Shown one piece after another: positions 12,677 through 48,663 of a stretch of 64,000 bases of DNA. Both the position numbers and the translations under genes were made by a program. The notes below the pieces were generated by a model, which searched no databases, was not told the DNA's origin, and saw only the letters and a program-made list of their open reading frames with translations. Numbering within the stretch: the first letter of the stretch is position 1; each line of letters opens with the position of its first letter. This DNA comes from Escherichia coli. GTDB taxonomy: Bacteria > Pseudomonadota > Gammaproteobacteria > Enterobacterales > Enterobacteriaceae. The DNA is taken from the NCBI RefSeq assembly GCF_022846255.1, contig NZ_AP025682.1. One strand, 5' to 3'.

Positions 12677-12902
12677 GCAATAGTGTTAGCCGTGAGTTTT
12701 CACGCTCCGCCCTATAAGTCGGATGAATGGAATAAAATGCATATCGGATTGGGTGAAAGTGAAAAAGAAAAAAGCAGGAAATGTCTGCAATTATTGATAC
12801 CGAACGACCATTCCCCTCCAGAACCATAGAAAATAAAAATGCACATACTTTGACTTTTAATTCAAATAAACCGTTTGCGCTGACAAAATATTGCATCAAA
12901 TG

Positions 12903-12931
12903 CTTGCACCGCTTCTGGCTATGAGTATAAT
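12903..12931 (+). promoter_or_regulatory. pyrLBI sigma70 promoter
   Basis: -35 cTTGCAc and -10 TATAAT separated by ~17 bp, ~30 bp upstream of pyrL ATG. Confidence 0.7.
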
Positions 12932-12956
12932 GCCGGACAATTTGCCGGGAGGATGT

Positions 12957-13091
12957 ATGGTTCAGTGTGTTCGACATTTTGTCTTACCGCGTCTGAAAAA
13001 AGACGCTGGCCTGCCGTTTTTCTTCCCGTTGATCACCCATTCCCAGCCCCTCAATCGAGGGGCTTTTTTTTGCCCAGGCGTCAGGAGATAA
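12957..13091 (+). CDS. pyrL: pyrBI operon leader peptide
   Basis: 44-codon ORF MVQCVRHFVLPRLKKDAGLPFFFPLITHSQPLNRGAFFCPGVRR overlapping the attenuator hairpin. Confidence 0.92.
   Translation: MVQCVRHFVLPRLKKDAGLPFFFPLITHSQPLNRGAFFCPGVRR
13045..13071 (+). terminator. pyrBI attenuator (rho-independent terminator inside pyrL)
   Basis: agcccctcaatcgaggggct hairpin followed by T8 run, 24 bp before pyrB ATG. Confidence 0.9.
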
Positions 13092-13094
13092 AAG

Positions 13095-14030
13095 ATGGCT
13101 AATCCGCTATATCAGAAACATATCATTTCCATAAACGACCTTAGTCGCGATGACCTTAATCTGGTGCTGGCGACAGCGGCGAAACTGAAAGCAAACCCGC
13201 AACCAGAGCTGTTGAAGCACAAAGTCATTGCCAGCTGTTTCTTCGAAGCCTCTACCCGTACCCGCCTCTCTTTCGAAACTTCCATGCACCGCCTGGGTGC
13301 CAGCGTGGTGGGCTTCTCCGACAGCGCCAATACATCACTGGGTAAAAAAGGCGAAACGCTGGCCGATACCATTTCGGTTATCAGCACTTACGTCGATGCG
13401 ATAGTGATGCGTCATCCGCAAGAAGGTGCGGCGCGCCTGGCCACCGAATTTTCTGGCAATGTACCGGTACTGAATGCCGGTGATGGCTCCAACCAACATC
13501 CGACACAAACCTTGCTGGACTTGTTCACCATTCAGGAAACCCAGGGGCGGCTGGAAAATCTGCACATTGCGATGGTCGGTGACCTCAAATATGGCCGCAC
13601 CGTTCACTCCCTGACTCAGGCGCTAGCGAAGTTCGACGGCAACCGTTTTTACTTCATCGCGCCGGACGCGCTGTCAATGCCGCAATACATTCTGGATATG
13701 CTTGATGAAAAAGGGATCGCCTGGAGTCTGCACAGCTCTATTGAAGAAGTGATGGCGGAAGTAGACATCCTGTATATGACCCGCGTGCAAAAAGAGCGCC
13801 TGGACCCGTCCGAGTACGCCAACGTGAAAGCGCAGTTTGTTCTTCGCGCCAGCGATCTCCACAACGCCAAAGCCAATATGAAAGTGCTGCATCCGCTGCC
13901 GCGTGTTGATGAGATTGCGACGGATGTGGATAAAACGCCTCACGCCTGGTACTTCCAGCAAGCAGGCAACGGGATTTTCGCTCGCCAGGCGTTACTGGCA
14001 CTGGTTCTGAATCGCGATCTGGTACTGTAA
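13095..14030 (+). CDS. pyrB: Aspartate carbamoyltransferase catalytic subunit
   Basis: 311-aa ORF with STRTR and HPLP motifs; AGGAGA RBS. Confidence 0.96.
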
Positions 14031-15168: not shown

Positions 15169-17865
15169 TTACTGCCAACCGTAACGACGGCTATAGAACC
15201 CTTTCACCAACTGGGTTAACGTCATATACCCTGCCAGAATCGCAACCAGCCACGGGAAATAGCTTAACGGCAGCGCCTGCAGCTGCAGATAACTGGCCAG
15301 CGGTGAAAACGGCAATGCGATCCCGACAATCATCACGATCACGGTCATAATCATTAACGGCCACGATGCACAGCTCTGAATAAACGGTACACGACGGGTG
15401 CGGATCATATGCACAATCAGCGTTTGCGACAGTAAGCCCACCACAAACCAGCCCGACTGGAACAGCGTTTGCGTTTCCGGCGTGTTGGCATGGAATACCC
15501 ACCACATCAGGCAAAACGTCAGAATATCGAAAATCGAGCTGATCGGTCCGAAGAAGACCATAAAGCGCCCCAGATCCGCCGGATTCCAACGCTGCGGCTT
15601 TTGAATTTGCTCGTCGTCGACGTTATCAAATGGGATCGCCACCTGTGACACATCGTATAGCAGATTTTGAATAAGCAAGTGTAGCGGCAACATCGGCAGG
15701 AAGGGCAAGAAAGCACTCGCCACCAGCACGCTGAACACATTACCGAAGTTAGAGCTCGCCGTCATTTTGATGTATTTCAGCATGTTGGCGAAAGTGCGAC
15801 GTCCCTCAATAACCCCCTCTTCCAGCACCATCAGGCTTTTTTCCAGCAGGATGATATCAGCCGCTTCACGGGCAATATCTACCGCGCCGTCCACAGAAAT
15901 GCCGATATCCGCAGCGCGTAAGGCGGGCGCATCATTAATACCATCGCCCATAAAGCCAACCACATGCCCTTCGCGCTTCAGCAACGTTACGATGCGTTCT
16001 TTATGCATCGGCGTCAGACGAGCAAACAGCGTGGTGCGCTGTGCGAGATTTGCCAGTTCGTCGTCAGATAGCGTTTCAATATCACTACCAATGACCACCT
16101 CTCCCGCGTCCAGCCCCACTTCATGGCACACTTTCGCTGCAACTAACTCACTGTCGCCAGTAAGGATTTTTACGGTAATTCCACTCGCTTTTAATGCCTT
16201 CAGTGCCGGAGCGGTTGTCTCTTTTGGCGGATCAAGGAAAGCAATATATCCTTCGAGGATCAGGTCGGATTCATCCGCCCGCTGGTAATCTCCTTCACGC
16301 GCTGGCAGGTATTTCGTCGCCACCGCAACCACGCGCAGCCCCTGACGATTCAGCGTATCAGTAACCCGCTTAATCTTACGCAGCATGGTGTCATCGAGCG
16401 GTACAATCTCGCCATTGTGACGCACTTGCGAACACACATTGAGGATTTCCTGCAATGCGCCTTTGCAAACCAACTGATGGTGTTCGGTATTTTCTGCCAC
16501 AACCACCGACATCCGACGACGCTCGAAATCAAACGGAATCTCATCAATTTTTTGCCAACGGCTGGCCAGCGAGCGCGCTGACTCTTCATCCGTACCTTCG
16601 AGCACCGCTGTATCAAGCAGGTTTTTAAGCCCGGTCTGGTAATGGCTGTTCAACCACGCGCTATGCAGCACGCGTTCGCTAGTTTTACCGGAGATATCGG
16701 TATGATTCTCCAGCACAATTTTATCCTGTGTCAGGGTGCCGGTTTTATCAGTGCACAGAATATCCATTGCGCCAAAGTTCTGAATGGCATCCAGATGTTT
16801 GACGATCACTTTCTGTTTCGACAACTTGACTGCGCCACGCGCCAGCGTCGAGGTAACAATCATCGGCAACATTTCTGGCGTTAAGCCTACCGCGACCGAA
16901 AGCGCAAACAGTGCCGCTTCCCACCAGTCACCTTTGGTGTAACCGTTGATAAGCAACACCACCGGAGCCATCACCAGCATAAAGCGAATCAGCAGCATAC
17001 TGACGCGGCTAATCCCTTGCTGAAAGGCATTCGGCTCGCTTTCCTGCTCACTAACACGCCCCGCCAGTTGACCAAACCAGGTATTGGCACCTGTGGCAAT
17101 CACCATTGCTTGTGCCGTGCCGCTCACCACGGTGGTGCCCATAAAACACAGGGTGTCGCACTCCAGCGGATTGCTGTGCTCCGGCTGGCGAGTGGTAGCG
17201 GCTTTTTCCACGGGCAGAGACTCACCGGTTAACGACGCCTGAGCGACAAACAGATCCCGCGCCTGCAAGATACGTAAATCTGCCGGGATCATATCCCCCG
17301 CCGCCAGTTTTATAATATCGCCGGGCACCAGTTGGTCTATCGGGATTTCCAGCCAGCCATTTTCACCTTTATCGTTAATTACGCGCAGTACCGTCGCGGT
17401 ATTACTGACCATCGCTTTCAGGGCATCTGCCGCTTTGGTGGAACGAGCTTCCTGAATAAAGTTCAGCAACGTAGAAATAGCGACCATTAGCGCGATAACA
17501 CCTGCGGCAAATAAATCTTCCGTGGCGTAAGAAATAGCACCAAGAATGGTGAGCAAAATATTAAAGGGGTTGCGATAGCAGACCCATAAATGTACCCACC
17601 ACGGCGACGGTTGTTGTGCGGGTAATTTATTTTCACCATGTTGTTCGCGGGCAGATTCCACTTCCGCCAGATTTAACCCTTCCGGATGGGTGTCGAACGT
17701 TTTCCACAATTCTTCTTCGGGCATCACCGCCATTTTCAGGCAATGCGCACTTAAAGAAGGCGGGACCGCCGCATTCACTGTCTGCTGCGCGCCAGGCAAT
17801 GGATCACGATGAACCAGACGGGAAGGTAAATGGCGAATGAGCCGGGTAAAAATTTCTTTAAACAT
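15169..17865 (-). CDS. mgtA: Magnesium-transporting P-type ATPase
   Basis: 898-aa ORF with P-type ATPase DKTGTLT phosphorylation motif and GDGINDAPAL hinge motif. Confidence 0.96.
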   Translation of the reverse strand: MFKEIFTRLIRHLPSRLVHRDPLPGAQQTVNAAVPPSLSAHCLKMAVMPEEELWKTFDTHPEGLNLAEVESAREQHGENKLPAQQPSPWWVHLWVCYRNPFNILLTILGAISYATEDLFAAGVIALMVAISTLLNFIQEARSTKAADALKAMVSNTATVLRVINDKGENGWLEIPIDQLVPGDIIKLAAGDMIPADLRILQARDLFVAQASLTGESLPVEKAATTRQPEHSNPLECDTLCFMGTTVVSGTAQAMVIATGANTWFGQLAGRVSEQESEPNAFQQGISRVSMLLIRFMLVMAPVVLLINGYTKGDWWEAALFALSVAVGLTPEMLPMIVTSTLARGAVKLSKQKVIVKHLDAIQNFGAMDILCTDKTGTLTQDKIVLENHTDISGKTSERVLHSAWLNSHYQTGLKNLLDTAVLEGTDEESARSLASRWQKIDEIPFDFERRRMSVVVAENTEHHQLVCKGALQEILNVCSQVRHNGEIVPLDDTMLRKIKRVTDTLNRQGLRVVAVATKYLPAREGDYQRADESDLILEGYIAFLDPPKETTAPALKALKASGITVKILTGDSELVAAKVCHEVGLDAGEVVIGSDIETLSDDELANLAQRTTLFARLTPMHKERIVTLLKREGHVVGFMGDGINDAPALRAADIGISVDGAVDIAREAADIILLEKSLMVLEEGVIEGRRTFANMLKYIKMTASSNFGNVFSVLVASAFLPFLPMLPLHLLIQNLLYDVSQVAIPFDNVDDEQIQKPQRWNPADLGRFMVFFGPISSIFDILTFCLMWWVFHANTPETQTLFQSGWFVVGLLSQTLIVHMIRTRRVPFIQSCASWPLMIMTVIVMIVGIALPFSPLASYLQLQALPLSYFPWLVAILAGYMTLTQLVKGFYSRRYGWQ

Positions 17866-18130
17866 AAGGAGTCCCTCCGCACTGTCTGAAACAGTACAGA
17901 AATGTCTTCAGGCGTGGCGAAGCCTTACCTGAAGGTAATAAAGCTGAGCAGGGACGTTAAAACGTCACGGCCTTACGCATCCGGTAACGCCGTGAAAAGA
18001 CGGGCTTACCGGAAAAGTTTTAATCTCCGTCGAGGGAGAGGCGTGGGATCAGGTTCCATATAACCTCCGGTAAGTGAAAAAAGCGCCGCAAATAATAAGG
18101 AGAATCCAATAATATTCGTAGCATTTATGG
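17866..18130 (-). promoter_or_regulatory. mgtA 5' leader region (Mg2+/proline-responsive leader containing mgtL)
   Basis: ~260-nt untranslated interval between PhoP-box promoter and mgtA ATG, containing the proline-rich mgtL ORF. Confidence 0.6.
18006..18059 (-). CDS. mgtL: mgtA leader peptide MgtL (17 aa, proline-rich)
   Basis: Reverse complement encodes [17 protein letters not shown], inside mgtA leader. Confidence 0.85.
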
Positions 18131-28228: not shown

Positions 28229-28332
28229 GCCGGATGCGGTGCACCTGTAGGCCTGATAAGACGCATCAAGCGTCGCATCAGGCACTATGCTCAAATGCCG
28301 GATGCGACGTGAACGCCTTATCCGGCCTACAC
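28229..28332. repeat. REP/BIME cluster
   Basis: tgccggatgcg...gtaggcctgataagacgcatcaagcgtcgcatcaggc...tgccggatgcgacgtgaacgccttatccggcctaca. Confidence 0.8.
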
Positions 28333-34487: not shown

Positions 34488-34590
34488 AGTAGGCATGATA
34501 AGACGCGGTAAGCGTCGCATCAGGCTTCAGCGCACAACCGCCGGATGCGGCGCGAGCGCCTTATCCGGCCTACGAATCGGCATCAGGCAT
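34488..34590. repeat. REP elements
   Basis: gtaggcatgataagacgcggtaagcgtcgcatcaggc / gccggatgcggcgcgagcgccttatccggcctac. Confidence 0.8.
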
Positions 34591-44958: not shown

Positions 44959-45058
44959 TGCCGGATACGGCGTAAACGCCTTGCCAGGCCTACAAAATCG
45001 TCCAAATTCAATATATTGCGGGGACTGCGTAGGCCTGTTCGGCATAGCGCATCAGGCA
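44959..45058. repeat. REP elements
   Basis: tgccggatacggcgtaaacgccttgccaggcctaca / gtaggcctgttcggcatagcgcatcaggca. Confidence 0.75.
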
Positions 45059-45234
45059 GTTTTTCATTTTTCAGCTGTCTGAATTTTAACCCTCTGGCGG
45101 CTTTACAGTACCTTACGCTATACTAGCCACTGAAAATGCCGGTTCACTTTCTTCGAATCGGCTTTCAATGTGTATTTCACACAAATTAATCAACTTCCCC
45201 TTCCGAGGATCTGGCCTGAAAGGTCGGATAAGAT

Positions 45235-48474: not shown

Positions 48475-48663
48475 TTCTCCACCTCGTCTCTGTGAGCGGT
48501 GTTAACTTATTGTTTTACTTATACCCTATCGTTAATGAATGCGCCAACTGTGATAGTGTCATCATTTTCAAAGCGTAAAATTGTGGCATTCTTCACTGTT
48601 CTATAAGTAAGACGTTTATTCTCCCTTTTCTTTCGTATTCCCGATGATAAAAGGATGTCCCTG

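Follow-up and report, generated by a model that had tools for sequence, protein, structure and literature searches.

Introduction

In Escherichia coli K-12, attenuation at the pyrL terminator that is sensitive to UTP and coupled to translation is established, according to PMC10135430 and PMC5021804, which cite Turnbough 1983, Roland 1988 and Donahue 1994. A reporter placed behind the pyrL terminator alone is expressed about 18-fold less, and termination there varies with transcription-translation coupling, by which it is relieved (PMC5021804). RNA polymerase slows at low UTP in a U/C-rich tract of the leader (PMC10135430), and the same paper, citing Donahue and Turnbough 1994, mentions a 'hairpin pause' in vitro, which appears together with termination bands in a reconstituted coupled system. 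One in vitro study describes a different pyrL pause, located about 24 nt upstream of the classical one and independent of both a hairpin and NusA (PMC9291695), so that the part assigned to each pause is tentative. UTP also acts at initiation: when it is high, AATTTG with its three T makes RNA polymerase slip and release AAUUU(n), and productive initiation is about 7-fold lower (PMC7039003, PMC6524683). In addition, pyrBI is among the stringently controlled promoters with a G+C-rich discriminator (PMC6524683, PMC6245113).

The trp, his, leu, thr and phe attenuators share with pyrL a short translated leader ORF and an intrinsic terminator before the structural genes, and in all of them the position of the ribosome decides termination. 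They sense charged tRNA through ribosome stalling, which switches antiterminator and terminator hairpins, whereas pyrL responds to UTP through the polymerase, and its terminator is blocked by the ribosome itself, without an antiterminator. In the case of pyrE, the translated upstream ORF is the full-length rph gene and not a dedicated leader peptide. The E. coli pyrE attenuator (rph-pyrE) likewise relies on UTP-sensitive transcription-translation coupling at an intrinsic terminator before a pyrimidine gene (PMC4491880).

The locus carries the pyrBI leader of E. coli

The locus described here was analysed in a stretch of 64,000 nucleotides of E. coli DNA (the window). It comprises the following features, given with their positions, their strand and the grounds for each assignment:

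12904..12909 (+): -35 hexamer TTGCAC of the pyrBI promoter directly 5' of pyrL (P2 in K-12); homology and position
12926..12931 (+): -10 hexamer TATAAT, 16 nt past the -35 hexamer; sequence and conservation
12932..12938 (+): putative G+C-rich discriminator GCCGGAC, between the -10 box and the start site; sequence
12939..12944 (+): initially transcribed AATTTG with the start at its first A, probable site of reiterative transcription; K-12 identity, PMC7039003 and PMC6524683
12947..12953 (+): Shine-Dalgarno (SD) sequence of pyrL, GGGAGGA; sequence, with GCCGGGAGG nearly invariant across genera
12957..13091 (+): pyrL, 44 codons plus TAA, MVQCVRHFVLPRLKKDAGLPFFFPLITHSQPLNRGAFFCPGVRR; ORF, PF08052, NF007587 equivalog and RefSeq
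12989..13006 (+): pause hairpin GCGTCT-GAAAAA-AGACGC (extended helix 12987-13009); folding, conservation and literature
13007..13044 (+): U/C-rich tract, with the core GTTTTTCTTCCCGTTG at 13016-13031; composition, conservation and literature
13045..13064 (+): attenuator (intrinsic terminator) hairpin AGCCCCTC-AATC-GAGGGGCT; folding, terminator scan and 81 sequences
13064..13071 (+): T8 run of the terminator; sequence, with 7 to 9 T in other species
13083..13087 (+): SD sequence of pyrB, AGGAG, within the last pyrL codons; sequence, with CAGGAGA conserved across genera
13095..14030 (+): pyrB, aspartate carbamoyltransferase catalytic chain, 311 aa; TIGR00670 (418 bits), PF02729 and PF00185
14043..14504 (+): pyrI, aspartate carbamoyltransferase regulatory chain, 153 aa; TIGR00240 (243 bits), PF01948 and PF02748

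We conclude, with a probability of about 0.97, that this region is the native E. coli pyrBI promoter-leader (pyrL), with two repressor-free UTP-sensing steps that lower pyrBI transcription at high UTP. The feature is the already known pyrBI attenuator, intact and in its standard E. coli form. What we established directly is the sequence, its folds, the identity with K-12, the family membership, the conservation and covariation, and the geometry of ORF and terminator.

From the -10 box to the pyrB ATG, the window is 100% identical to E. coli K-12 (aligned with the K-12 strain NCM3722), and is thus base for base the leader described by Turnbough, Hicks and Donahue (1983), Roland, Liu and Turnbough (1988) and Liu, Heath and Turnbough (1994). 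The identity covers the start region, the SD sequence, the 44 codons, the pause hairpin, the terminator and the T8 run, up to the pyrB ATG. Differences from K-12 are confined to the -35 box (TTGCAC in the window, TTGCGC in K-12) and to three bases of the spacer, where the window has GGCT and K-12 has GACG, the first G being common to both. Other complete E. coli genomes (H71 and H72) carry precisely the 81-nt promoter allele of the window, and the K-12 gene order yjgH-pyrL-pyrB-pyrI-ridA is the same in the window.

A 501-nt query around the site found a match in 5424 of 5426 complete genomes, and in each of the matched genomes RefSeq labels the position 'pyrL: pyr operon leader peptide', followed by pyrB. 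The 172-nt stretch between the -10 box and the pyrB ATG has at least 99% identity in 5416 of these 5424 complete E. coli genomes, and 100% identity in 36 genomes out of a spread sample of 40. The pyrL peptide matches Pfam PF08052 over its full length (residues 1-44) at 117.1 bits, for a cutoff of 25, and the NCBIfam equivalog NF007587 at 120.1 bits, for a cutoff of 61; the corresponding RefSeq position is annotated as pyrL, WP_001296693.1. The gene lies on the same strand as pyrB-pyrI and immediately 5' of them, its stop ending at 13091, 3 nt ahead of the pyrB ATG at 13095. Pyrimidine control of aspartate carbamoyltransferase in this strain should consequently work as in the textbook, and the significance of the locus is small beyond its correct annotation.

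Promoter and start region

A promoter composed of TTGCAC and TATAAT had been proposed 5' of pyrL in the earlier note, and both hexamers are present, separated by a 16-bp spacer. A simple sigma-70 consensus scan called 0 promoter sites here. It missed the pyrBI promoter because TTGCAC matches TTGACA at only three of six positions, and the scan is unusable as evidence either way at this place. The promoter is instead assigned, as a probable one, by its position, its perfect -10 box, its identity with the characterised K-12 core and its conservation across genera, and does not depend on a consensus score.

The UTP-sensitive reiterative promoters, a group formed by pyrBI, codBA, upp and carAB P1, have at least three T on the non-template strand right after the start site (PMC6524683; the pyrBI sequence is from PMC7039003). 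The window has AATTTG at this place, 7 nt past TATAAT. From the identity with K-12 that begins at the -10 box, transcription would be expected to start at the A of AATTTG and to yield AAUUU(n) ladders at high UTP.

The -35 box is TTGATC in most of the other Enterobacterales, in E. albertii, in Citrobacter and Salmonella, and in a minority of E. coli genomes. In the latter, which number about 600 of the 5424, homology to the window ends at 12922, 4 nt before the -10 box. On the 5' side of the locus in these genomes (E. coli Z247, L002 1-3000), yjgH/bdcA give way to genes for an ornithine carbamoyltransferase (annotated argF), a YfcC-family protein and an arginine repressor. The occurrence of TTGATC in about 600 E. 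coli genomes, in E. albertii, Citrobacter and Salmonella and in most other genera suggests that the K-12 and window type of -35 box (TTGCGC/TTGCAC) looks like a derived allele.

The leader ORF, the pause elements and the terminator

The pyrL ORF begins with the ATG at 12957, has 44 sense codons, as the earlier note had counted, and ends with TAA at 13089-13091. It was also right that the coding sequence runs through a GC-rich hairpin followed by eight T: the hairpin occupies 13045-13064, which corresponds to pyrL codons 30-36, and the T run 13064-13071, so that the leader ORF of the window extends across the whole terminator, its stop lying 20 nt beyond the T run. The distance between the T run and pyrB needs a small correction, from the 24 bp given there to 23 nt between the last T and the pyrB ATG (13072-13094). 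A second ORF of 49 aa overlaps pyrL in another frame (12953-13102, +). We rejected it as probably incidental: its ATG abuts the SD sequence without spacing and it is absent from the annotation. This ORF ends 8 nt inside pyrB and is open also in some Citrobacter species.

5' of the terminator we found a pause hairpin followed by a U-rich tract. The pause hairpin folds with -11.6 kcal/mol (z -4.28), and none of 200 shuffles was as good. The tract at 13007-13044 consists of 37% T and 40% C, compared with 26% and 24% locally. Hairpin and tract are the counterparts of the hairpin pause and of the stretch with a need for U in the reconstituted coupled system of PMC10135430.

The terminator is an 8-bp stem with six G-C pairs, formed by the arms AGCCCCTC (13045-13052) and GAGGGGCT (13057-13064) around an AATC loop, in which the first T of the T8 run pairs with A13045. 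It is thus an intrinsic terminator, a G+C-rich hairpin with a U run, placed between the promoter and pyrB, and a consensus terminator scan also reports the hairpin at 13045-13064. RNA folding and a comparison with the K-12 pyrL sequence had been suggested as checks. Folding gave a stable hairpin of -15.9 kcal/mol against a shuffle mean of -7.5 (z -3.88), with 0 of 200 shuffles as good, and the comparison showed a pyrL identical to that of K-12, with its reading frame undisrupted.

Conservation of the leader across Enterobacterales

Species-representative genomes were scanned with PyrB, which gave 80 Enterobacterales loci ranging from Escherichia to Yersinia, Serratia and Rahnella. All 80 promoter regions that were recovered have TATAAT, mostly as GTATAAT, and the 7-nt discriminator and the SD sequence are kept as well. 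AATTTG is found in most species; Kluyvera, Klebsiella, Raoultella and their relatives have GTTTTG, CGTTTG or GATTTG, with the T run retained.

A terminator hairpin with its T run lies 5' of pyrB in all 81 sequences, and its CCCCT/AGGGG core is nearly invariant. When the 81 leaders were aligned with MAFFT and analysed with RNAalifold, only 4 invariant pairs and no covariation were obtained, in an alignment where loop-length differences had shifted the 5' arm; the pairs were for this reason tallied with the CCCCT/AGGGG core as the anchor (an alignment of the arms only has 12 distinct rows). Compensatory changes were then seen at three pairs. The apical pair is C-G in 62 sequences, T-A in 16 and unpaired in 3; the first outer pair is G-C in 79 and A-T in 2; and the second outer pair is A-T in 67, G-T in 7 and G-C in 6. 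In one species, one C and one G have been lost together. The pause hairpin directly 5' of the U tract is likewise kept across genera with different sequences and with compensatory changes, its variants including GCGCCT/AGGCGC, GCACCT/GGGTGC, CGCCTG/CAGGCG, CATCG/CGATG and ACTGCC/GGCAGT. The GTTTTTCTTCCCGTTG core of the tract is conserved at the nucleotide level even where the reading frame differs.

In 80 of the 81 sequences, the SD-linked leader ORF extends at least as far as the terminator. The commonest form, present in 50 of them, is the Salmonella/Citrobacter type, in which the leader has 33-34 codons in most cases and stops in the loop or the 3' arm of the terminator, the stop TGA spanning both. 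This type has the same promoter core, AATTTG, SD sequence, pause hairpin, U tract and terminator as the window, and TTGATC as its -35 box. The E. coli pyrL, unlike it, reads through the terminator, and belongs to the 30 leaders that stop past the T run, with 44-56 codons in most. The remaining sequence is that of Siccibacter, where the leader stops 3 nt before the hairpin. Two leader frames are much longer than the others: that of Phytobacter massiliensis (L051) has 95 codons, and that of Pluralibacter gergoviae (L068) continues into pyrB in frame and without a stop, for 358 codons.

The length of the leader, its C-terminus and even the frame over GTTTTTCTTCCCGTTG thus vary among species. That the leader nevertheless reaches the hairpin is a prediction of the mechanism in which the position of the ribosome blocks the terminator. 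The variable peptide and frame, set beside RNA elements that persist, argue that the constraint on pyrL is on these RNA/DNA elements and on the extent of the ORF, and not on the peptide.

Predicted UTP sensing by the leader

The earlier note had interpreted the locus as a UTP-sensitive attenuator that couples transcription with translation. The K-12 identity from the -10 box, the intact frame and the stable hairpin support that interpretation, which was correct as far as it went; what it omitted was the reiterative transcription at AATTTG and the pause hairpin with its U/C-rich tract.

That the system depends on UTP, that the polymerase pauses and that the ribosome takes part is known from the literature, and the identity with K-12 suggests that the three apply to the window as well. 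Transcription would begin at A12939. At high UTP, the polymerase would slip on the three T of AATTTG and release AAUUUU(n), leaving fewer productive transcripts, and at low UTP initiation would be productive. During elongation at low UTP, the polymerase would pause once it has passed the 12989-13006 hairpin and also inside the U/C-rich tract, giving the pyrL ribosome time to catch up. A ribosome right behind the polymerase would then cover the 5' arm of the terminator (13045-13052), the hairpin would not form, and transcription would proceed into pyrB and pyrI. At high UTP there would be no pause, the polymerase would outrun the ribosome, and the hairpin with its U8 would stop transcription 23 nt before pyrB. 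Both the read-through response to UTP and the need for leader translation are what the 100% identity of the leader with that of K-12, taken together with PMC10135430 and PMC5021804, would predict.

Alternative readings of the leader

One could take the hairpin and the T8 run for a constitutive terminator that belongs simply to yjgH, the gene upstream, which is encoded on the same strand and ends at 12676, the small ORF being then incidental; an intrinsic-terminator-like site downstream of a same-strand gene would fit. We give this practically no weight, since about 370 nt separate the hairpin from the yjgH stop and a conserved promoter and SD-ATG precede it, the terminator stays with pyrB both in the roughly 600 E. 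coli genomes that have unrelated genes for yjgH and in 80 other species, and in 80 of the 81 sequences the ORF is kept running into the hairpin. Attenuation could also work through an RNA-binding protein, such as PyrR of Bacillus, or through tRNA-sensing antiterminator and terminator hairpins, as in trp and his. These are the commonest designs, and there is a weak Trp_leader match at 13001-13071; however, this match covers the terminator only and scores 19.7 bits where the gathering score is 41. The search for PyrR elements was negative both with E up to 1 over 12000-14000 and at the gathering threshold for the entire window; the predicted folds contain no antiterminator helix that would compete for the arms of the terminator; and the only run of a single regulatory codon in pyrL is FFF, at the place of the U tract. 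A design of either kind is, according to these searches and folds, next to impossible here. The Rfam searches over the same ranges (permissive over 12000-14000, gathering threshold over the whole window) returned no family for the pyrBI leader, and the sub-threshold matches Chlorobi-1, Hrs1, Trp_leader and STnc100 were rejected as look-alikes aligned to the terminator only. It is also very improbable, though a shade less so, that pyrL encodes a small protein with a sequence-dependent function, acting in cis like TnaC or in trans. Pfam and NCBIfam do hold peptide models for pyrL, and its N-terminal two-thirds (MVQCVRH.VLPRLK.DAGLPFFFPL) are well conserved in close genera. Against a functional peptide, the leader has anything from 29 to 56 residues in 79 of the 81 sequences, with unrelated C-termini in different frames; Cedecea reads the conserved GTTTTTCTTCCCGTTG in another frame, as RFSSRC instead of PFFFPL; and in Serratia, Yersinia and Rahnella, where the RNA elements are still present, the peptide can no longer be recognised. 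Nothing in the data runs counter to the pyrBI attenuator as known from K-12.

A further layer might be added to the pyrBI attenuator. The pyrL SD sequence CGGGAGGA (12946-12953) can pair with TCTTCCCG (13021-13028), in which case the pause would gate the loading of the ribosome as well as its catching up: leader translation would begin only while the polymerase of the transcript is still paused upstream of the tract, and a leader RNA, once complete, would admit no further ribosomes. Both the minimum-energy and the centroid fold of the leader contain the 8-bp helix, and the pairing is predicted, with a probability of 0.93 to 1.00, in all 74 distinct leaders of the 81 species. In Serratia, a change from CGGGAGG to CAGGAGA on the SD side is matched by one from CCCG to CCUG, and for the leaders of Serratia, Yersinia and Mangrovibacter (L057) only 1 to 3% of the composition-matched shuffles pair equally well. 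The CCCG/TCCG part of the tract is, besides, conserved though it is unneeded for U-specific pausing. However, any pyrimidine-rich tract pairs with a purine-rich SD sequence. In E. coli the pairing reaches -14.3 kcal/mol against a shuffle mean of -13.1, with 32% of the composition-matched shuffles as good, and most genera are alike in this; the SD side is nearly invariant, and therefore real covariation, whose scarcity counts against the pairing, is rare; and several lineages with CCAGGAGG show no matching change on the other side. The literature searched held no experimental support for the pairing.

The SD-closing helix is thus predicted in every leader examined and is statistically unconvincing, and we regard the added layer as unlikely. 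That the pyrL ribosome-binding site (12946-12953) would be closed by the conserved CUUCCCG tract (13021-13028) once this leaves the polymerase appears slightly more doubtful still. If true, UTP-dependent pausing just upstream of the tract would control ribosome loading, terminated leader RNAs would be shut to translation, and the textbook attenuator would have, in the closure of the SD sequence, a third UTP-dependent checkpoint that is so far unreported.

Other features of the window

The yjgH ORF, as called mechanically at 12197-12676 (+), has a TTG start and 159 aa; in both K-12 NCM3722 and the closest genome, RefSeq gives the orthologue 131 aa (396 nt). No tRNA gene turned up anywhere in the window. 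Downstream of pyrBI, the leader of mgtA (15169-17865, -) contains a magnesium riboswitch at 17959-18074 (-) (Rfam RF01056, 125.8 bits), which is an expected neighbour of pyrBI in E. coli. Three copies of naRNA4 score above the Rfam gathering score, the group being listed at 1157-1232, 28250-28327 and 34492-34570 (-). The other Rfam matches above the gathering score are Ysr276, ES239, ES036 and STnc450, for which the coordinates listed are 129-323 (-), 48541-48663 (-), and 44994-45036 and 45116-45173 (+).
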